Assembly (NCBI GenBank): GCA_043815885.1
Contig: JBDRIL010000029.1
Span: 3,249 to 67,248 of the forward strand
Source of the DNA: an archaeon
GTDB taxonomy: Archaea; Iainarchaeota; Iainarchaeia; Iainarchaeales; 1-14-0-10-31-34
Reading direction: 5' to 3'
DNA length: 64,000 bases
A program made the position numbers and the translations under genes. This document shows, piece after piece, positions 6,107-63,490 of this stretch. The number at the start of each line of letters is the position of its first letter. Position 1 is the first letter of the stretch. A model generated the notes under the pieces. It searched no databases, was not told the DNA's origin, and saw nothing but the letters and a program-made list of their open reading frames with translations.

Positions 6107-9100
6107 TCACTGCACTACCTTGCCTGTAATTGCATCAATTCTCGCTTTTCTTTCCTTTCCATTTTCTTCCAGTGAAACGTAATAGAACGGCCTGTAAACC
6201 AGACTCACTTTTTTCACTATCACTGTCTTCCACATTTTCTGGAGAGACTTAATTACTTTTTCTTCAGAGAAATTAGCTTCGACTATTGAGACATTCTTTA
6301 ATTCAACCAAAGGCAATTCATTCAATGAATCAATCAATGAATGCCTTGAGTCAGGAGGAAGTTCTATCTCTCTGTTAAGGAAATAGGAGACCTTTCCCTC
6401 AGAACTAACTCTATCAACCAAACCCTTTTCAGTTAAATTGCCTAGAACTTTTTTTATTCTTGTTTCAGAGTAATTCTCTTCCTCCAGTTTTTCCTCCATT
6501 CCTTTCCTTTTAATTAAGCCAGCAAATACCTCTAACTGCTCTTCATCCAATTCCATTACCTTATTGAAGCCTCTTGATTCAATGAATTCATCATTCTTTA
6601 CGTGAATGAATTCCCCTGTAATGGCATTAATGAAACACGTAGTTGCAATGAATTCCTTGCTTTTGTTGAAGTCATTGAATGAAATCTTATAGACTGGCTC
6701 AAAAATAAGTTGAAGTTGCTTTACCTGCTCTTCCTTTCCAACCAACCCAAACCTTTTCCTTTTCCTTACCTTATTAACGATTTTCTTTGCTTCCTCTTCC
6801 TTTAATCTTAATGGAAATGAAAGAATGCTTTCCCTCTCTACCTTCTTTTCTTCCTGCTCTTTTATTCTTTCCTCTGCTTTTTCCTGTGCTTCCTTTATTA
6901 CTTCCTCTTTTTCCTTTAATTTTTCTGCAAGAACGACTCTGTCTGGTTCAATTACTGCCTTTCTTTCCTCCAATAAATCCAGTACAGAGGAAAGCATTGC
7001 CTTTGCCTTGTACTTGCTGTTCAATGAATTAATCAATTGATTGATTTTATCCATTCCTATTTCTCCATCCCTTCCTAATTCCCTGAACGCAATTTCCATT
7101 GCAAGGTTTTCCACCTGTTCCTTGCTCAGGCTTTTAACCAAAGAAATGGTTTCTGCATCCCTTCCCTCGTGCTGCGACATTCTTGGGCGGATACTCATCA
7201 CAAACGCTCTGCTTGTTTCCTCTCTCCTGTCACCAGTGAGAGCATAACCTATTGGAAGGCTTCTAATGAAATTGCTTTTCTTGTATTGGTGGGGAATGAT
7301 TGTAGGAATTCTCTTGTAAATAGCCTTTATGTCGTCATCAAAAACCAGTTTATGAGTCAAAAGAATATCCAATTGAGACAACACCCTTGTATCAATTGCT
7401 GATGGCTGCTGTGTAGCAAAAACTATACTGCAACCAGGCCTTCTTCCCTGCTTAACATACTCCACCAACGCATTTGTGGCAGGAGTATTTACATTTCCTG
7501 AAGGAATTAAGGTGTGGGCTTCATCAATAAACATCCAGGTAGGAGGAATATCTGTTTCAAGCAATGCATTCATTGAAGTAGCCTTCATTTTATTCGCTGA
7601 TTCTCTTCTAGTGGAAAGCTTTCTCGCTGAAAGAATTCTCCTTGCAAGAATTCCAATAACCAATGCAGTAACATTTGCTTCAAGAAAACTTGTATCCAAT
7701 ACAGTCAACTGGTTTTCTCTGGAGAGTTCCCCCAAAGGAGTTCCCTTTTCATCAAAGATCCCCCAGGACTTCGCTGCCTCAAACCTGCTGACTAACGCCC
7801 TAATGGAATCCTGTTTGTAGCCTCTTTCCCTGCTATTCAATTCTTCATCTGTCTCCAGACAGTTTATCATGCCATCCAGAGAAAAACCCTGCTTGTTTGC
7901 CTTAACGTATTTTCCTTCAATTGTCTTGTATCCATGCTCTACTTTTTTAATTACCTTATCCAAAAGCAAGCCGCTTGGACCAAATCTCTCCATTCCAAAA
8001 GTCAAACACCAGTCCTCTGAGGTAAGCAGTGAAGGCTGAATTGAAAAGGTTGCATCATAAGTGTTTTTTGGAGTTTCATTCTTCATTCCTGCTGGAATGA
8101 ATACCTTAAGGTTATCAAGGCCTTGAGGTTCTAACCCCCACTCAATCAATGCACTTAATTCCTTTTCTTCCTTGTTTGCATACTTCATGCTCCAGAACAC
8201 TCCAATAGGATCAATTACTACTATTCCAACATTGCTGTTTTTCAGTGCCAGTTCCTCTGCAATCACTCCAAGAACGTATGAATTATGAACAATTATATCG
8301 TTTGCAACAAAATTATAGTATTCTGGAACAGAAATATCATATACATCTTCTCCAGGAATTTCTTTTAACTCAGTTACCTCATCCCAAAAAATATCTGATT
8401 CTGCTATCATCTGTACTCCTTTATTCCCTTCAATCTGAGCCATTCTCAGTAACTTTTTTCTGGAAGGCGCGTAAGTTAAGGAACTATGGACGTAGTTTGG
8501 ATTATAACCCATTGCTCTCGAAGCAGCCTTACAATTTTTTGGTCTATAAATGCCCCAGATTTCTTTCGGAATAGTGTCTACATTTGGATTTCTTGAAACC
8601 TCAAGCATGTCTTTTATTGCATTTTCCTGTTTTAGTTCTTTTACCCCAAAAAAACCGATTTCCTGAATGAATCTGATTACACTTTCAGATGAAATAACTA
8701 ATTCAAAGGAATTGAATTTTTTCTCGTTACATTTGACTTTTTTGAACCTAAGCCTAGAGAGTATCCCAAATCTAATCAAAAGATTCTGCACTTGCCTTAT
8801 CATTTTATCTGAAGAACTAGAATAAGAAACCTGCCAATTATTTTTTCTTCTACTTATCGGATGAATACTGCCGTCACAACTGAAAAGCCTGTTCAGGAAT
8901 AATGCCAGCTGTTCTTTAGGAAGTTTTAATACTTCTTCTGGAATAACTTTCTCCTTTGTTAGCTTTCCATATAATCCAATGCTTTCAAACCATTTTGCCA
9001 GAGAACTCTTTTGCGCGACAATAAACCCTTTGCTTGTAAATTGCCCTTTTTTGTTTCTAACAACATTTGTTAAATCAATTGGTTTCTTTTTTTGTGCAAC

Positions 9101-10288
9101 TCTATAGCATCCGATTTTACTATGCACTTCTATTCTTAGGTTTTCATCAAATTCCTTTATGCTTTGGGAGAAATCTTCAAGAATTTTTTTGTCTTCGTTA
9201 CTGAATAAAACAAATGCATTTCTTAGATGCCCTTCCGCAATAAAGTAAGCCAATAACTTAATATCACACTCTCTCATCCTAGTGTTGCCAAATACATTAA
9301 GTGCCCTTGGCACTGCTATCCTGTCTTTTGCTTTTAGTTCTTGGGTTTGCATCCATCCATTAATTGTTAGGAGAGGATGTTCGGGAGTCAATTTTATTTC
9401 CCTTCCACTCCTTAACCGCAAATAAAGCAATTTGCTCACTTTTCTCTTATAAAATCCTTCTTTTTTCAATGGAACTACTTTTAGTTCATGGTTTAATCCA
9501 AGAACCCGTTTATCATTGTTTTCTAGTTCCTTTATAGGAATAACCGAGCCATCTTCCAAGGTTATCAATGAATCGCCAGTAAGGCATTTTCCACTCCCAC
9601 GAGCACCGCAAACAAACACTACATGAGGATTCAGTCCGTCAAGAAAAACCTTTTTTTTATTGTATCCCTCTTCCTCCAGCCTTCCAATCAATAATGCTGC
9701 ATCAGATCCATAATTAAGGAAAACTGATTTCTTTCTTCCAATGAATACAGATTCATTTTTCTCGTCCTCCAGAAATTGCAGAGGCATTGAATTTGCTGGA
9801 ACTTCTTCCACAAATTTTTCTTCTGGTTCAGGAGCGCCTTCCATTTCACTTATTGTTTCCCCGCGCTCTTCCTTTTCCTCTTCAACTTCTTCCTCTATTT
9901 CCTTTGTTGCAGACTTCAAAGCCTTTCTCAGAATGAGTTTCTTTAATTCATTTTTTGGAGGCAATTCCTTCTTCAATTCCTCCTCTGGTTCTTCAATGTT
10001 TTCCTCTTCTGCTTCCTCGTTTTCTTCCAATTCAATTTCCTTTTCAATTGACTTGTTTTCTTTTTTTTCCTTTGCGCCAATGCTTTTCTCAAAAGCTTCA
10101 GCTTTTGCGCCACTGCTTTTTTCAAAAGCGGTGTTTTCTTTTTCTGGCTTTATTGTCTTAATGATTTCCTCTACATGTTTTTCCTTTTTCCCGTCAAATA
10201 CCTCGTCAAATATATCCACGTCCTCCTTTACCCTGGATTTCTGTACTCTCTCTTCTGGAGAGAGTTCCCTTGGTTTTTCTTCATTCAT
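6107..10288 (-). CDS. HerA/FtsK-superfamily (DUF87-like) P-loop ATPase with an acidic low-complexity N-terminus and an intein inside Walker A
   Basis: Extein Walker A is GARGSGK|S (reconstituted across the intein). Walker B is MFIDEAH. HerA-like motif TQQPSAIDTRVLSQLDILLTHKL. The N-terminal ~220 aa are an E/K-rich linker. Confidence 0.75.
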   Translation of the reverse strand: MNEEKPRELSPEERVQKSRVKEDVDIFDEVFDGKKEKHVEEIIKTIKPEKENTAFEKSSGAKAEAFEKSIGAKEKKENKSIEKEIELEENEEAEEENIEEPEEELKKELPPKNELKKLILRKALKSATKEIEEEVEEEKEERGETISEMEGAPEPEEKFVEEVPANSMPLQFLEDEKNESVFIGRKKSVFLNYGSDAALLIGRLEEEGYNKKKVFLDGLNPHVVFVCGARGSGKCLTGDSLITLEDGSVIPIKELENNDKRVLGLNHELKVVPLKKEGFYKRKVSKLLYLRLRSGREIKLTPEHPLLTINGWMQTQELKAKDRIAVPRALNVFGNTRMRECDIKLLAYFIAEGHLRNAFVLFSNEDKKILEDFSQSIKEFDENLRIEVHSKIGCYRVAQKKKPIDLTNVVRNKKGQFTSKGFIVAQKSSLAKWFESIGLYGKLTKEKVIPEEVLKLPKEQLALFLNRLFSCDGSIHPISRRKNNWQVSYSSSSDKMIRQVQNLLIRFGILSRLRFKKVKCNEKKFNSFELVISSESVIRFIQEIGFFGVKELKQENAIKDMLEVSRNPNVDTIPKEIWGIYRPKNCKAASRAMGYNPNYVHSSLTYAPSRKKLLRMAQIEGNKGVQMIAESDIFWDEVTELKEIPGEDVYDISVPEYYNFVANDIIVHNSYVLGVIAEELALKNSNVGIVVIDPIGVFWSMKYANKEEKELSALIEWGLEPQGLDNLKVFIPAGMKNETPKNTYDATFSIQPSLLTSEDWCLTFGMERFGPSGLLLDKVIKKVEHGYKTIEGKYVKANKQGFSLDGMINCLETDEELNSRERGYKQDSIRALVSRFEAAKSWGIFDEKGTPLGELSRENQLTVLDTSFLEANVTALVIGILARRILSARKLSTRRESANKMKATSMNALLETDIPPTWMFIDEAHTLIPSGNVNTPATNALVEYVKQGRRPGCSIVFATQQPSAIDTRVLSQLDILLTHKLVFDDDIKAIYKRIPTIIPHQYKKSNFIRSLPIGYALTGDRREETSRAFVMSIRPRMSQHEGRDAETISLVKSLSKEQVENLAMEIAFRELGRDGEIGMDKINQLINSLNSKYKAKAMLSSVLDLLEERKAVIEPDRVVLAEKLKEKEEVIKEAQEKAEERIKEQEEKKVERESILSFPLRLKEEEAKKIVNKVRKRKRFGLVGKEEQVKQLQLIFEPVYKISFNDFNKSKEFIATTCFINAITGEFIHVKNDEFIESRGFNKVMELDEEQLEVFAGLIKRKGMEEKLEEENYSETRIKKVLGNLTEKGLVDRVSSEGKVSYFLNREIELPPDSRHSLIDSLNELPLVELKNVSIVEANFSEEKVIKSLQKMWKTVIVKKVSLVYRPFYYVSLEENGKERKARIDAITGKVVQ
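8282..9586 (-). mobile_element. intein (435 aa) with LAGLIDADG homing-endonuclease domain, inserted in the P-loop of the HerA-like ATPase
   Basis: Begins CLTGDSLITLEDG right after GARGSGK. LAGLIDADG blocks LLAYFIAEGH and LALFLNRLFSCDGS. Ends NDIIVHN, followed by Ser+1. Coordinates were derived by codon counting. Confidence 0.85.
10103..10138. repeat. 36-nt imperfect-hairpin repeat (TTTTGCGCCACTGCTTTTTTCAAAAGCGGTGTYTTC), in-frame within the HerA-like gene; a degenerate tandem copy lies at ~10071-10102
   Basis: Near-identical copies lie in the P0 gene at 27369-27404 and 27534-27570. On the coding (minus) strand it encodes TAFEKSSGAK. Confidence 0.8.
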
Positions 10289-14083: not shown

Positions 14084-14326
14084 TCCATTAATAAAACTCT
14101 CTTCATATTAATAAATTTAACTCAAAAAAATATTCAATTTAGTTTAATTCGATTATGTAGCTTAACAAAAAACTATTTAAAACGATTACCACAACAATAG
14201 TTGTGGTATTGGGAGTTAAAGGAGGCAAGTCATACTGCTTTTGCGAAAGAATTCTTTTTCAACAGTCTTTAGATTAAAGACTGTGCAGTTCCCTGGCTTG
14301 CCTTCATCATAATTACTATTTCTTTA

Positions 14327-14379
14327 AAACTTTTAGGAAAAGTTTTATCAAAAAAATATTGTATACCTTCGGTATACAA
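14327..14379. repeat. bipartite hairpin element AAAACTTTTnnGAAAAGTTTTATCAAAAAA + nCCTTCGGn hairpin, copy 1
   Basis: Copy 2 is at 29198-29236, in the leader of the L1-P0-P1 operon; 28/30 nt identical in hairpin 1. Confidence 0.6.
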
Positions 14380-14525
14380 TAAAAAAAATTAGTTTTTATT
14401 TCTTTAATTTCCTTACTGCCCCCCTATTGACATCCACTTTTATAAATATTATCCCGTTGTAATAGGAGGGAGGATTCTATAACATTTTAATATCGTTTTC
14501 CCCTACAATAAATACTGCACTGAAA

Positions 14526-14720
14526 GCAGGGATGGCGGAGCGGTTTAACGCACCAGCCTTGAGCTGCCCCTTCTTTTCTTTTTCTAAAAGAAAAGAAGCG
14601 GTAAGTTGCCGGAAGAAAAGAAAAAATTAATTGCCCAAAAAGAAAGAAAGGATGGCTTCTTTAATTGCACAAGCGAGCTGGCGTCCGAAAGGACTCGGGA
14701 GTTCGAATCTCCCTCCCTGC
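14526..14720 (+). tRNA. tRNA-Ser (anticodon UGA), class II, with a 111-nt intron at canonical position 37/38 (14564-14674)
   Basis: Acceptor GCAGGGA/TCCCTGC, 3-bp D-stem GCG/CGC, anticodon stem CCAGC/GCTGG split by the intron, loop CTTGAG|A, long variable arm CGTCCGAAAGGACTC, T-arm GGGAG-TTCGAAT-CTCCC, discriminator G. Confidence 0.8.
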
Positions 14721-14846
14721 GTATCAGAACCTAGCGGTTCCGATACCTCCCTTACGGAAGGATATCTTTTCCTTTTCGCCAGCCTTTCAGAAAAAGGCTG
14801 TCAGATAGCTTCTTTAAAAAAGGCTTTGCATAAAAAAGTGATAGAA

Positions 14847-16375: not shown

Positions 16376-16516
16376 GCAGGGATGGCGGAGCGGTTTAACG
16401 CACCAGCTTGGAGCCGAACCCTTTTTTCTTTCCCGAAAGAAAAAGGGATAATTATTATTGTTTGACAAATAGCTGGCGTCCGAAAGGACTCGGGAGTTCG
16501 AATCTCCCTCCCTGCG
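16376..16516 (+). tRNA. tRNA-Ser (anticodon GGA), class II, with a 57-nt intron at 37/38 (16414-16470)
   Basis: 5' half and T/acceptor arms identical to the 14526 copy. The anticodon loop is TTGGAG|A instead of CTTGAG|A. Confidence 0.8.
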
Positions 16517-16640
16517 TATCAGAAAAACTACGTTTTTCCGATACCTTTTCCTTTTCGCCAGCCTTTTAGAAAAAGGCTGTCCGATACCCCCCTTACGGAG
16601 GATGCCTTCCTTAAAAAGCAGGCGCGCAAAAAAGTGAGAA
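16517..16640. repeat. duplicated tRNA-Ser 3' flank (hairpin CGCCAGCCTTTYAGAAAAAGGCTG, YCCGATACC, CCCTTACGGARGGAT modules), copy 2
   Basis: The same modules occur at 14721-14846 after the first tRNA-Ser, in rearranged order. Both copies end in AAAAAAGTGAnA(R)AAATGA and then a gene start. Confidence 0.7.
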
Positions 16641-27218: not shown

Positions 27219-28502
27219 TTATTTCTTCTCCTTTTTTTTGGTTTCTTTCTTTTCTACTGGTTTCTCTTCTTTCTTGGGTTTCTTTTTTGCTTCTTCTTTT
27301 TTTCCAGTCTTTTTTTCTTCCATCTTTGGTTTCTCTTCTTTCTCTTTTTCTTCCTTTGGTTCCTCTTCTTTTGCGCCACTGCTTTTTCTAAAAGCGGTGT
27401 CTTCTTTCTTTGGTTTTTCCTTTGCTTCTTTTTCTTCAACTTTAGGTTTTTCTTTTATTTCTTTTTTCTCCTCGCCTTTCTTCTCTTCTGGCTTCTCCTC
27501 TTTTTTTGGGTCTTCCTCGGGTTTCTTTTCTTCTTTTGCGCCACTGCTTTTTTCAAAAGCGGTGTCTTCCTTTTTCTCTTCTTTAGAGTCTTCTTTCTTT
27601 TCTTCAGCTTTCTCTTCTTTGGCTTCCTTTTTTTCCTCTTTAGATTCTTTTGTTGCTTCGGGTTCCTTCACCATTGATTTCAGTGAATCTGCCTGAAGGT
27701 TTGCCTTTCCGAGAAGATTGCTGATTGTTTCCTTGTTGAAGATTTCTGCATCCAATGCAACACTAAGGGAATCCCTGTATGCCTTGGACAAAAACAGCTT
27801 TATTGTGTCTTCATTAGTGTAATAAATATTTAAAGCCAGATTGAGTGAATTCCTGTAGGCTTGCTGGAAGTCACTGAACAGCTCGTCTATATCAATGTCC
27901 ATTACTTCTGCCTTGAATATCTCTCCCTTTTCATATACTGCAATTACATTTAATCCAACCTTTATTGGCTTAATATTCAGTTTCTGGAGAGTGCCTGAAA
28001 CAACCTTTGAGATTTCTTCTCCTTTCCTGCATACAGTCTTGTCTTCTGAAATAAAGATTGAGCTTCCCTGAATCCTTACCTTTAATCCTGCTCCCTTTAA
28101 GTCACTTAGTGCAGGGCCTGGAGGCAAACCAGTATCTCCTGCAGGAACAAGGATATCATCAGGGGCAATTATTCCGGGTTTTGCTGAAACCCTTCCTTTA
28201 TTCTTTTTAATTAAAGCATAGAGTTCAAATGGATTCATTTGAGTGAAGATTATTGCAACTGAGCCTTTAACTTCTTCAAGCAATTTGCTTTCCTTTAGCT
28301 TTGATTCCTTTAATGCATTTAGTATTACTCTGGTTTTGGAAACCTTTATTACTGCTTTATCATGCAATAACTTCCTTATGTCCTGGAAGAGGTTGGCTGG
28401 AAATCCAGTAATATCAGCTACAGCAATAACCGGATAACTCTCAATTAACTGTTTTAATTCAGTTACTTCCTTTTTCTTCCATTCAGTTGTATGACGGGTC
28501 AT
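27219..28502 (-). CDS. rplP0: ribosomal stalk protein aP0 (uL10) with an expanded K/E-rich C-terminal tail
   Basis: uL10 N-domain (VIAVADITGFPANLFQDIRKLL). The tail of ~150 aa is K/E repeats carrying two copies of EDTAF(E/R)KSSGAKEE and ends KKEKK rather than GLGALFG. Confidence 0.85.
   Translation of the reverse strand: MTRHTTEWKKKEVTELKQLIESYPVIAVADITGFPANLFQDIRKLLHDKAVIKVSKTRVILNALKESKLKESKLLEEVKGSVAIIFTQMNPFELYALIKKNKGRVSAKPGIIAPDDILVPAGDTGLPPGPALSDLKGAGLKVRIQGSSIFISEDKTVCRKGEEISKVVSGTLQKLNIKPIKVGLNVIAVYEKGEIFKAEVMDIDIDELFSDFQQAYRNSLNLALNIYYTNEDTIKLFLSKAYRDSLSVALDAEIFNKETISNLLGKANLQADSLKSMVKEPEATKESKEEKKEAKEEKAEEKKEDSKEEKKEDTAFEKSSGAKEEKKPEEDPKKEEKPEEKKGEEKKEIKEKPKVEEKEAKEKPKKEDTAFRKSSGAKEEEPKEEKEKEEKPKMEEKKTGKKEEAKKKPKKEEKPVEKKETKKKEKK
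27369..27404. repeat. 36-nt hairpin repeat copy in the P0 tail (encodes DTAFRKSSGAK)
   Basis: TTTTGCGCCACTGCTTTTTCTAAAAGCGGTGTCTTC; 35/36 identical to 27534-27570 and 10103-10138. Confidence 0.8.
27534..27570. repeat. 36-nt hairpin repeat copy in the P0 tail (encodes DTAFEKSSGAK)
   Basis: TTTTGCGCCACTGCTTTTTTCAAAAGCGGTGTCTTCC. Confidence 0.8.
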
Positions 28503-29179: not shown

Positions 29180-29306
29180 TCTAAAAAAACCTCCTGCAAA
29201 ACTTTTCCGAAAAGTTTTATCAAAAAACCCTTCGGGATGGCAGTAATAACGGATTAAAATTAAGATTTAATAATAAATAAGTGAAAAAAAGGGTTTAAAA
29301 AGGGTG

Positions 29307-37173: not shown

Positions 37174-37263
37174 TATCAAAAGACATTAGATATGAAACTT
37201 TTTTAATGTCTTTTGATAGCTATCAAAGGACAAATTTTTTATCTATATTTTTGTCCTTTGATA
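37174..37263. promoter_or_regulatory. two tandem perfect 15-bp inverted repeats sharing the half-site TATCAAARGACA, in the secE-spt5 intergenic region
   Basis: First repeat: TATCAAAAGACATTA, 15-nt spacer, TAATGTCTTTTGATA. Second repeat: TATCAAAGGACAAA, 15-nt spacer, TTTGTCCTTTGATA. Followed by AAAACCC-atcga-GGGTTTTT. Confidence 0.55.
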
Positions 37264-37368
37264 TTAATTTTGGAATAATTTAAAAACCCATCGAGGGTTT
37301 TTAAAGCTTTAAAAAATCTTTGATTTTTTAAATAAACTTATTAAAATATGTTTTGAAAGAAAAAAAAA

Positions 37369-58876: not shown

Positions 58877-59042
58877 CCAAAAATGGGCTAACGGACACAG
58901 GCTTTACCATAACTTCATTAAAGAAAATTCAACAATCGGAATGACGCCTTCAGAGAAAGCAGGAATTGAATTAAACTTAAACAGAAATAAGTGGTTGAGT
59001 TTATTAGAACAAAGCTTAAACTCCACACATAAACAAGAATAA
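58877..59042 (+). pseudogene. fragment of IS6-like transposase (C-terminal ~50 codons), remnant second copy
   Basis: Translates as ANGHRLYHNFIKENSTIGMTPSEKAGIELNLNRNKWLSLLEQSLN. It is ~90% nt identical to the reverse complement of 60852-61010 and in the opposite orientation to the intact copy. Confidence 0.75.
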
Positions 59043-59635: not shown

Positions 59636-59800
59636 ACAGGGTTTTTTGCCTGACGAATTTTCGACAGAGCCCTGAAAGCGGCATTGTCGTAAAGGGGGTT
59701 GATTTGATTGGAAAAAAGTAAAGTGTCGAATTCGGTTGGTATTGAAAGGAAAGGGGGTGAAAAAAACGAAAAAATTAATAAGGAGCTTTCCCTTTTAGAT
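59636..59800. repeat. conserved ~165-nt leader module (GAATACGACAGRGCCCTGAAAGCGGCATTGTCGTARRGGGGTTGATTT...GTCGAATTCGGTTGGTA.TGAAAG...CGAAAAAATTAATAAGGA), copy 1
   Basis: Copy 2 is at 63335-63490. Each copy precedes a divergent small TM peptide and may encode a shared N-terminal peptide SNSVG(I/N)ERKGGE(K)NEKINKE. Confidence 0.7.
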
Positions 59801-60851: not shown

Positions 60852-61973
60852 TTATTGATTTAAGCTTTTCTCTAATAGGCTTAACCACTTATTTCTTTCA
60901 AGCTTTAAATCAATCCCTGCTTTCTCTGAAGGCGTCATTCCGATTGTTGAATTTCTTTTAATGAAGTTATGGTATAATCTGTGTCCGTTAGCCCATTCTT
61001 GTGTTGTCTTGTTTGACTTGAATCCTCTTCGCACTTTATCGAATTCCCTGAATTCATTATGATACCTTTCTACAAGATTGTTGTTTATTAAGTGCCTTCT
61101 TCCAACAATACTGATATGCTTTGTTCTCTTTGACTTGGTTCTGAATTCTCTCTTGATTGCTTTTGGATAGCTTCCAAGAGAATCAGTAATAATGAATTTA
61201 GGTTCTTCTGCTTTAGGATTGTTTTCTTTTACTTCAATGAAATGCTCTTGAGCATCCTTAATTTTTCTTCCTTCTGTGATTGTTGAAGCTAAGACAAATC
61301 TTGTTTTATGGTCTATTGAATTCCAAGCATAAACCCATTTTCCTTTGGATTTAACTAATTGTTCATCAGTATGAATTTGTCCGCTTAATTCAGGAGTGAA
61401 TTTCTTAGTGTATTCATCCATTTTTGCAGTGAACTTATTAATCCATCTTCGGATTGTATCAAAATGAATTCTGATGTTATAGAATTGGTAAACAGTATCA
61501 GAAATATCTCTCAATGATAAGCCTTTGAAGTATAAATCCATTGTTAAAGTAATGATTTTTGGGTTTGCTTTAACTCTTTTCAATGGCTCTAAAACAAATA
61601 GTTTTTTACAGGCTCTGCATTGCCATCTTTGTTTTATTCCTGCACTTGTCTTTCTTTTCCCGTATTTAACTATTAGGTCTGAATAACAGTGAGGGCATTC
61701 CTGTTTATTTGCATTGAATTCTTCCTCTATATTGAAGTCATCTAATTCTGCCTTGTTTTTCATTTTTAAGTAAAATTTGATTGAGTGAATGTGTTTGCAT
61801 TCAGTTTTCCTGTATTTGAAGTCAGGGCATTCACAACTCCATAGGTTAGCGTTCTGCACTTTATATTTTCCATTTCCAGATTGAGAAGGAATAATCCATT
61901 CATTCTCATTAACCATTAAAGGAGTATCGCCTTTAGACAAAATCGCTAAACCCCTAATTTCTCTTTCATTCAT
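60852..61973 (-). CDS. IS6-family-like DDE transposase with N-terminal SWIM-type zinc finger
   Basis: CECPDFKYRKTECKHIHS (CxCxnCxH) zinc finger. DDE region resembles IS6/IS26 (WVYAWNSIDHKTRF..., FIITDSLGSYPKAI, RRHLINNNLVERYHNEFRE, NGHRLYHNFIKRNSTIG). Confidence 0.75.
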   Translation of the reverse strand: MNEREIRGLAILSKGDTPLMVNENEWIIPSQSGNGKYKVQNANLWSCECPDFKYRKTECKHIHSIKFYLKMKNKAELDDFNIEEEFNANKQECPHCYSDLIVKYGKRKTSAGIKQRWQCRACKKLFVLEPLKRVKANPKIITLTMDLYFKGLSLRDISDTVYQFYNIRIHFDTIRRWINKFTAKMDEYTKKFTPELSGQIHTDEQLVKSKGKWVYAWNSIDHKTRFVLASTITEGRKIKDAQEHFIEVKENNPKAEEPKFIITDSLGSYPKAIKREFRTKSKRTKHISIVGRRHLINNNLVERYHNEFREFDKVRRGFKSNKTTQEWANGHRLYHNFIKRNSTIGMTPSEKAGIDLKLERNKWLSLLEKSLNQ

Positions 61974-63334: not shown

Positions 63335-63490
63335 CAACCGAGAATACGACAAAGCCCTGAAAGCGGCATTGTCGTAGGAGGGGTTGATTTTGAGTGAAAT
63401 TAATGGTTTGTCGAATTCGGTTGGTAATGAAAGAAAAGGAGGTGAAAACGAAAAAATTAATAAGGAAAACGCCCTTATTAATCGTGTTAG
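63335..63490. repeat. conserved leader module, copy 2
   Basis: Matches 59636-59800 at ~85% identity. Confidence 0.7.

Follow-up and report, generated by a model that had tools for sequence, protein, structure and literature searches.

Background

Repetitive extragenic palindromes (REPs) are imperfect palindromes of 20-40 nt which carry a strand-specific mismatch and a short conserved tail by the stem, occur in many copies and have no coding capacity. They depend on RAYT (Y1 HUH) transposases for their movement, are extragenic by definition and GC-rich, with a head of the GTAG type, and copies inserted in frame within genes are not a feature of REPs. Translated selfish DNA within essential genes is, to our knowledge, a textbook matter only for the Rickettsia palindromic elements (RPEs). 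Here we report a hairpin-forming repeat of 31-33 nt, hereafter called the element, which lies in frame in two unrelated genes in a stretch of 64,000 nt from an archaeon of the lineage Iainarchaeota (assembly GCA_043815885.1, contig JBDRIL010000029.1, positions 3,249 to 67,248 of the forward strand), the whole of which is called the window in this study. Copies of the element are found in several unrelated genes, in non-coding DNA and in a second archaeal lineage, and we consider it to be probably a miniature mobile repeat whose peptide is a by-product.

As for the closest described systems, the RPEs are bacterial and palindromic, about 150 bp long and divided into ten families, and they are found in frame in unrelated, often essential genes and also outside genes (PMC10969869). 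The same review names the REPs, and it describes the pneumococcal SPRITE, a small mobile repeat which resembles a rho-independent terminator, with a hairpin and a T-run, and which clusters with other small repeats (PMC10969869). The repeats called PARCEL are described as tandem intragenic repeats with dyad symmetry, variable copy number and signs of horizontal as well as intragenomic movement (PMC2996958).

The RPEs are the closest analogue of our element. In both cases a dispersed palindromic hairpin repeat lies in frame in several unrelated genes, adds a conserved peptide to their products and has non-genic copies as well. However, the element is archaeal (DPANN), is restricted to segments that are rich in Lys and Glu (K/E-rich) or degenerate, and with 31-33 nt falls below the RPE length criterion of 100-150 bp; moreover its 33-nt units occur in tandem arrays, and in another lineage it adjoins 3' fragments of tRNAs. 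The two are likened by description, sequence homology not being expected or meaningful at this length. With the REPs, their bacterial interspersed mosaic elements (BIMEs) and the hairpin ends of IS200/IS605 insertion sequences (IS), the element has in common the size class, the imperfect palindrome, the strand-specific mismatch, the tail, the copy number and the lack of any coding capacity of its own, whereas most copies in the window's lineage are inside open reading frames (ORFs) and thus not extragenic. SPRITE and the element are both terminator-like mobile repeats, but SPRITE is bacterial, larger and intergenic, and the terminator-like strand of the element is antisense to its hosts. PARCEL encodes an amphipathic domain of 25 residues, found in bacteria and eukaryotic microbes in proteins whose function is unknown, whereas the element amounts to 10-11 residues in housekeeping proteins and has non-coding copies, of which the PARCEL abstract describes none (PMC2996958). 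We class the element with the in-frame selfish palindromic repeats, a kind already known, as a variant that stands outside any named family.

Results

Searching the window with a 36-mer pattern gave two matches with 0 mismatches, at 10103-10138 and 27534-27569, and a third at 27369-27404 with 2 mismatches, both within the 3-nt hairpin loop; 100 dinucleotide-preserving shuffles gave none. This confirmed what an initial annotation had claimed, namely that a near-identical element lies in frame in two unrelated genes, for a HerA-like ATPase and ribosomal protein P0, together with a degenerate tandem copy. Two of its measures were amended: the copy reported at 27534-27570 is present without mismatch and ends one nucleotide earlier, and the unit, said to be 36 nt long, is actually 33 nt with a conserved core of 31 nt. 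Apart from the element, the only exact repeats of at least 24 nt in the window are the tRNA-Ser exons (two genes) and fragments of IS. Chance or low complexity as the origin of the repeat is ruled out by the shuffles and this census; and since the repeats are so limited, the worry that equally long K/E-codon matches might be abundant finds no support in the window, which is what the census covers.

Altogether four units are present in the window, three plus the degenerate tandem one, all on the minus strand and all in frame, and they encode TAFEKSSGAK, EAFEKSIGAK, TAFEKSSGAK and TAFRKSSGAK. Their spacings of 33 and 165 nt lie inside ORFs, and a six-frame peptide scan of the window found no motif site beyond these units in the HerA-like and P0 genes. 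The first host gene (6107..10288, minus strand) encodes a HerA-like ATPase with the Pfam domains DUF87 and HerA_C and a LAGLIDADG intein, and carries the element in a K/E-rich N-terminal extension at residues about 52-73. Its head unit (10103..10135, minus strand, stem-loop at 10111-10133) reads AAC ACC GCT TTT GAA AAA AGC AGT GGC GCA AAA, giving NTAFEKSSGAK, and adjoins the degenerate tandem "body" unit (10070..10102, minus strand), which reads GCT GAA GCT TTT GAG AAA AGC ATT GGC GCA AAG, giving AEAFEKSIGAK, and begins with the same GCTGAAGC- junction as body units at other loci. The second host gene (27219..28502, minus strand) encodes ribosomal protein P0/uL10 (Pfam Ribosomal_L10 and RL10P_insert) with a K/E-rich C-terminal tail of ~150 aa, in which there are two copies on the minus strand: copy a (27534..27566, hairpin 27542-27564), encoding DTAFEKSSGAK and missing at the orthologous site of the relative L017, and copy b (27369..27401, hairpin 27377-27399), encoding DTAFRKSSGAK with the loop AGA in place of GAA and likewise missing in L017.

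The conserved core of 31 nt is, on the coding strand, CACCGCTTTT-NNN-AAAAGCAGTGGCGCAAAA (C ACC GCT TTT NNN AAA AGC AGT GGC GCA AAA), and comprises a stem of 10 bp with one T.G/C.A position and a 3-nt loop, which make up a 23-nt hairpin, followed by a conserved 8-nt tail, GCGCAAAA. In arrays, a single head unit is followed by 33-nt body units, each starting with GCTGAAGC. The 10-bp stem-loop postulated earlier does fold as described, but the antisense strand of the genes gives the better hairpin: the plus strand, where T.G corresponds to a G.U wobble, folds with -11 to -12.4 kcal/mol (z -2.2 to -4.5), and the mRNA strand with its C.A mismatch with -7.7 to -9 kcal/mol (z -0.4 to -1.4). On the same plus strand a terminator-like consensus, a GC-containing stem plus a T-run, is flagged at all three window copies, antisense to the host genes, this being a consensus match only.

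Within the core, the loop triplets GAA, AGA, GGA and AAA encode E, R, G and K. The loop is the sole site of difference inside the core among the three window head copies, which were searched with mismatches allowed, and differences among the recovered copies overall are almost confined to it, the retrieval pattern having fixed most stem positions; the stem positions left free in the search (CACC and the G of AGTG) are invariant across 12 head copies. A synonymous GGC-to-GGA change lies within the tail of P0 copy a in contig L015, so that the tail is not absolutely constrained. All nine non-loop codons agree between the copies. By the codon usage of 25 window genes, the nine non-loop residues would be encoded identically and independently with a chance of about 10^-4.8, and the rare codons GGC (0.11), AGT (0.15) and ACC (0.20) are common to the three window copies. 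On these sequence grounds, the copies are a DNA-level repeat sharing nucleotide descent and not a convergent peptide. Of its six reading frames, five run through the element without a stop, the exception being a sense frame. Those on the antisense strand are hydrophobic or Cys-rich, and the hydrophilic frame (xTAFxKSSGAK) is the one used at seven of seven coding sites, always in the same orientation.

We also considered several established types of element, all of which were rejected. An archaeal bulge-helix-bulge intron, with its two 3-nt bulges on either side of a 4-bp helix, does not agree with the predicted stem, whose 10 bp are uninterrupted or hold a single mismatch, without bulges. The intervals between copies are coding in the window, or (57 nt; L002, L007) identical to each other, which is not the case for a CRISPR repeat. 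Unlike a classical miniature inverted-repeat transposable element, which is 50-500 bp long and has terminal inverted repeats between target-site duplications, the whole element is a 23-nt hairpin with an 8-nt tail, and filled and empty sites show no consistent duplication. ARAGORN and Rfam, the latter at gathering and E-value thresholds, found no match on the element to a tRNA, a tRNA half or a known RNA family; by eye its loop could pass for the anticodon loop of a tRNA (UUC or GAA), but the distance to the T-loop falls short of that in a tRNA by 6-7 nt.

Public collections were scanned with a pattern that left the loop and one stem base free, and at least 12 head copies were recovered in total. 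The species-representative genome set gave matches in the metagenome-assembled genome (MAG) of an uncultured archaeon (L001, L002), and the JGI metagenomes on eleven contigs. Matches in bacteria (L003-L005, L008, L016) lack the CACC arm and any matching context and were treated as chance; a viral origin was rejected as well, scans of viral contigs yielding one chance match only, in a GC-rich virus. The contigs of metagenome Ga0180007 have a GC content like that of the window and one of them, L015, is 99.5% identical to it; because the others share no gene with the window, it is by sample and composition that they are placed in the same lineage.

The coding sites number at least 7, in six unrelated genes, namely those for HerA, P0, eL32, uL24, an Asn-synthase-like enzyme and a small membrane protein. 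In Ga0180007 the element lies in frame in the N-terminal extension of eL32, in the C-terminal extension of uL24 and again in P0, and as four units each within the degenerate glutamine amidotransferase (GATase) half of the Asn-synthase-like enzyme and in the tail of the small membrane protein. Intergenic copies were found between convergent genes in L011 (Ga0180007) and in L010 from a different metagenome (Ga0315289), where the ORF in the motif frame is only 32-38 codons from stop to stop; most copies from the window's lineage are inside ORFs. The element can thus no longer be regarded as a property of two genes only, as it had been at the beginning, since other genes and non-coding DNA carry the core as well. 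At the Asn-synthase site the flanks, GGCTTAATCCAAGGC on one side and AAAAACTCAAGC on the other, are unlike K/E tracts. The Asn-synthase-like protein itself (L009/L018) starts with MSSIIG and has no N-terminal catalytic Cys, and the same is true of a 39%-identical relative, P0123, so that the GATase half seems degenerate in the lineage; where the last unit (TAFSESSGAK) sits, P0123 has IAFSYSNESKA, which may at best be a faint resemblance.

The identical 31-nt core also occurs in non-coding DNA of a second archaeal lineage of lower GC content (L001, L002, L006, L007), which besides the element has no nucleotide similarity to the window. There it sits downstream of intact tRNA-Gln(TTG) or tRNA-Arg(TCT) genes, in a unit made of a tRNA 3' fragment (T54 to discriminator), ~40 nt of small hairpins and the element, ending in ...GCGGTG. 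The fragments are the adjoining 20-22 nt in L002, L006 and L007, with the repeated units at 1-260, 860-1040 and 2417-2595, respectively. The tRNA-Gln unit is 93 nt long and tandemly repeated, with a stop codon in the motif frame in every unit, and the tRNA-Arg locus also holds a Gln-type 3' fragment. The same sequence therefore exists in untranslatable contexts where no peptide is possible. No recombinase or integrase near the arrays could be recognised by eye in the ORF translations of L001 and L002, for which no profile search was made. Besides, one small hairpin of the unit, ATGTCC-NNN-GGACAT, varies in its loop alone (ATA vs AGA). Both contigs of the MAG, L001 and L002, break off within the element. 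A tRNA 3' part downstream of an intact tRNA, as in L002, L006 and L007, is also what tRNA-restoring site-specific integration leaves. The nearest precedent for this tRNA-linked form is the tRNA fragments of archaeal integrating elements, as in Caldiarchaeum, where a recombinase-bearing element scatters such fragments (PMC3293823); by comparison, the units here are 93 nt without a gene, and a Gln-type fragment is found at an Arg locus.

Presence and absence of the element could be followed at several sites. Among 20 P0 homologs fetched from MAGs labelled Diapherotrites or Micrarchaeota, all have K/E tails, and the motif is found in 0 of the 19 others read. The closest relative (P0002 on L017, 83% DNA identity) lacks a clean 33-nt block at copy a, and the two tails become collinear once 33 nt are deleted from the window's P0 at both sites. 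In the sister strain L022, from ENA, copy b is missing and the sequence there is L017-like, but the ~185 nt that follow, the last of the P0 tail, match the window at about 99% identity; two other strains, L020 and L021, do have copy b. Copies a and b share flanks of about 9 nt and 6 nt (AARGAAGAC...GAAGAR), which lie within the tract that differs in L022, and because of these flanks copy b probably arose from copy a by local duplication or gene conversion. The Asn-synthase arrays of L009 and L018 differ by exactly one 33-nt unit and are otherwise identical in sequence. With the empty sites of L017 and L022, this answers the proposal that copy number and position be compared between strains: unit number and the presence of copies at given sites do vary. 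As to the HerA copy, it is identical in the one other strain at hand (L023), and no empty site was found among the sequences available, which are identical N-termini (P0122, L023) or very distant homologs; look-ups of the exact proteins of P0 and two HerA neighbours returned no match. It was also observed that the independent assemblies GCA_018818325.1 (NCBI) and ERZ27247128 (ENA) break their contigs (L021, L022) ~25 nt downstream of P0 copy a, at window position about 27505, and the repeat probably fragments assemblies.

Other small hairpins are abundant in the window, with dense stems of 10-13 bp and loops of 3-5 nt around two intron-containing tRNA-Ser genes. Intergenic clusters of perfect or near-perfect hairpins (10-16 bp, loops of 3-5 nt) lie at 14185-14802, 16420-16581 and 37207-37332 and are densest near tRNA-Ser, and behind the two tRNA-Ser genes the modules follow one another in different orders. 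A second, double-hairpin module at 14326-14383 is made up of AAAACTTTT-NNN-AAAAGTTTT, a linker and a stem closed by a UUCG loop; its stems are kept and its loops vary (AGG, ATT, CCG). One copy at 29198-29240 is missing at the orthologous site of L017, and a 58-nt copy lies between a Lon-like gene and P1 in three strains (L015 at about 1420-1477, L021 and L022) and not in the window. Because of this presence and absence between relatives and strains, small hairpin modules are demonstrably gained or lost in this population.

Two copies of a further hairpin trail the tRNA-Ser genes on the plus strand: one, TTTTCGCC-AGCCTTT-CAG-AAAAAGGCT-GTC, at 14773..14802 just downstream of tRNA-Ser(TGA), and the second at 16552..16581 downstream of tRNA-Ser(GGA). 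With the same leader-plus-stem architecture, this tRNA-trailer hairpin is possibly a relative of the element, the homology being judged by eye. At 16612-16635 on the plus strand, the strand opposite to that of the genic copies, AAAAAGCAGGCGCGCAAAAAAG differs from the 3' half of the element by 2 mismatches and stands at the end of the cluster of hairpins that follows tRNA-Ser(GGA), possibly as the decayed remnant of half a copy. The two tRNA-Ser genes (14526-14721 and 16376-16516, plus strand) have identical exons, long introns after position 37 and, by eye, the anticodons TGA and GGA. Both were missed by ARAGORN and at the Rfam gathering threshold, and only the second was recovered in the Rfam E-value mode (43 bits). 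Their introns contain a long hairpin and then CGGTAAGTTGCC, which resembles GCCGTAAGTTCC downstream of the tRNA-Arg fragment in L001 and L006.

Concerning the neighbourhood, the only transposase found in the window is an IS6-family DDE enzyme (DDE_Tnp_IS240; 60855-61973, minus strand) with a SWIM and zinc-ribbon N-terminus, Pfam having been run on 9 selected ORFs and the other ORFs read unprofiled. A fragment of ~80 nt (58882-58963) matches the 3' part of the transposase 2 kb away. The region, possibly a composite or integrated element, lies between the two copies of a 117-nt direct repeat (59662-59778 and 63347-63463), which are 78% identical. A link to this transposase was rejected, as the element has no sequence relation to its repeated fragments. 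The intein of the HerA-like ATPase (residues about 242-669) is full, contains a LAGLIDADG homing endonuclease and lies directly after Walker A (…GARGSGK|C), and the distant HerA-like homologs P0131, P0132 and P0134 are without an intein. P0 here and in most DPANN relatives read (P0002-P0036) has a long K/E tail (…KKEKK) and no conserved stalk C-terminal peptide, and the adjoining P1 (26884-27186) ends in a typical …GLGALFG.

Discussion

The comparisons above demonstrate that copies of the element have spread among unrelated genes and non-coding sites and have reached a second lineage, and that the element shows both insertion polymorphism and the behaviour of a minisatellite. Taking the evidence together, we believe that it is probably a miniature, non-autonomous, hairpin-forming DNA repeat like the REPs and RPEs, which propagates as DNA and whose peptide is a by-product. 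The suggestion of a tiny mobile repeat, or of a tract of gene conversion, lying in frame in low-complexity linkers has thus gained support from the unrelated genes, the non-coding copies, the empty sites and the one-unit array difference. As to how it spreads, a trans-acting enzyme might recognise the single-stranded hairpin in the style of REP/RAYT or IS200/IS605, or template switching driven by microhomology might carry it into A-rich tracts. Genic copies would survive only if they fall in a stretch that codes for a disordered K/E linker, and they could be tolerated in frame because the unit is 11 codons and one frame of the sense strand is open and hydrophilic. Tandem arrays may grow by replication slippage between the internal AAAAGC...AAAAGC repeats, and second copies in the same gene may come from local duplication or gene conversion.

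Several points weigh against this interpretation. No transposase or recombinase is linked to the element: no RAYT/TnpA gene was found in the window (9 ORFs searched with Pfam, the rest read) or in the fetched loci, and the IS6-family enzyme of the window is not hairpin-specific. No clean target-site duplication was seen, and since the ends dissolve into A-runs the boundaries are uncertain by a few bases. The use of a single frame and orientation at all seven coding sites, when five of six frames are open, could indicate selection on the peptide, and the shared flanks of P0 copies a and b look like local gene conversion or duplication and not like independent transposition. Furthermore, because the scan pattern fixed most stem bases, the stem conservation in the collection matches is partly forced, and all data come from metagenome assemblies.

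An explanation without any dedicated mobility would be that the element is a minisatellite which arose once and was spread between A-rich, K/E-coding tracts by ectopic gene conversion or unequal recombination. It would account for the constant frame and orientation, and it agrees with the purine-rich flanks at almost all sites, with the flanks in common between P0 copies a and b, with about 20 nt of common 5' flank at the HerA and L013 copies, and with the single 33-nt unit by which two otherwise identical arrays differ. However, the Asn-synthase copy has no K/E-like flanks, the tRNA-linked copies adjoin the T-loop and GC-rich hairpins, the core is also present in a lineage without other nucleotide similarity to the window, and the unrelated second hairpin module likewise inserts at non-homologous intergenic sites, all of which makes this explanation unlikely in our opinion. 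Selection for a signal in the nucleic acid itself could be another reason for the repeat, its presence in genes being then functional: a terminator on the T-rich strand for convergent or antisense transcripts, a REP-like 3' stabiliser or a palindromic protein-binding site. The hairpin and T-run scored on the plus strand at three of three window copies, the L010 and L011 copies exactly between convergent genes, the conserved stem with its free loop, the similar hairpins trailing both tRNA-Ser genes, and the tRNA-trailer copies of the second lineage, which lie on the tRNA-sense strand and give a perfect G.U stem, all point in this direction. Yet the copies are dispensable, being missing in L017 and L022 and varying in tandem number, the conserved tail bears a synonymous GGC-to-GGA change in L015, no Rfam family matches, and archaeal termination requires oligo-T only. 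We hold such a signal to be distinctly improbable as the whole explanation; function alone would not explain the spread, and it is compatible with mobility and not an alternative to it.

The reading least favoured by the data is one in which selection acts on TAFxKSSGAK as a short linear motif for docking or modification within disordered tails, above all those of ribosomal proteins, the nucleotide identity being due to recent duplication. The one frame and orientation at seven of seven coding sites, the three ribosomal proteins among the hosts and the frequent multimerisation of the motif speak for it. But the identical core lies in untranslatable contexts, the most variable residue changes charge (E, R, G, K), the motif is missing from close orthologs and from one strain, and the copies do not differ from one another at synonymous sites. 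When 1.84 billion representative proteins were searched exhaustively with phmmer, the motif segment had no other significant match, the 30-residue query being blind to single 10-residue copies, and a 40-aa motif query against 5.8 billion proteins returned nothing at E <= 10. Hence a peptide selected as such is very unlikely, and the earlier conjecture of a docking peptide under nucleotide-level constraint loses its ground to the untranslatable sites, the varying loop codon and the phmmer result.

Coming back to the miniature mobile repeat, a wider proposition can be put forward as a speculation to which we give little credence at present: the element may represent an undescribed class of ultra-small archaeal mobile elements, which would move among tRNA T-loop junctions, intergenic terminator positions and coding A-tracts, cross between DPANN lineages, be driven by tRNA-linked or hairpin-specific recombination, and time and again supply new peptide segments to ribosomal and other core proteins of reduced genomes.

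Conclusions

The element is probably an unusually small archaeal case of selfish DNA inside genes. It follows the same strategy as the RPEs in a DPANN archaeon, with a unit about five times smaller (a 10-bp hairpin, 11 codons), and its hosts include three ribosomal proteins, the HerA ATPase and an enzyme. On the practical side, it offers a marker for telling strains apart and probably causes contigs to break in these MAGs, and, if our interpretation is right, annotation pipelines would misread such inserts as lineage-specific motifs. For the biology of these archaea it would mean that repeats of less than 40 nt can cross between non-coding niches, such as tRNA trailers or terminators, and coding ones, and that the low-complexity K/E extensions of archaeal ribosomal proteins would be landing pads for mobile DNA.

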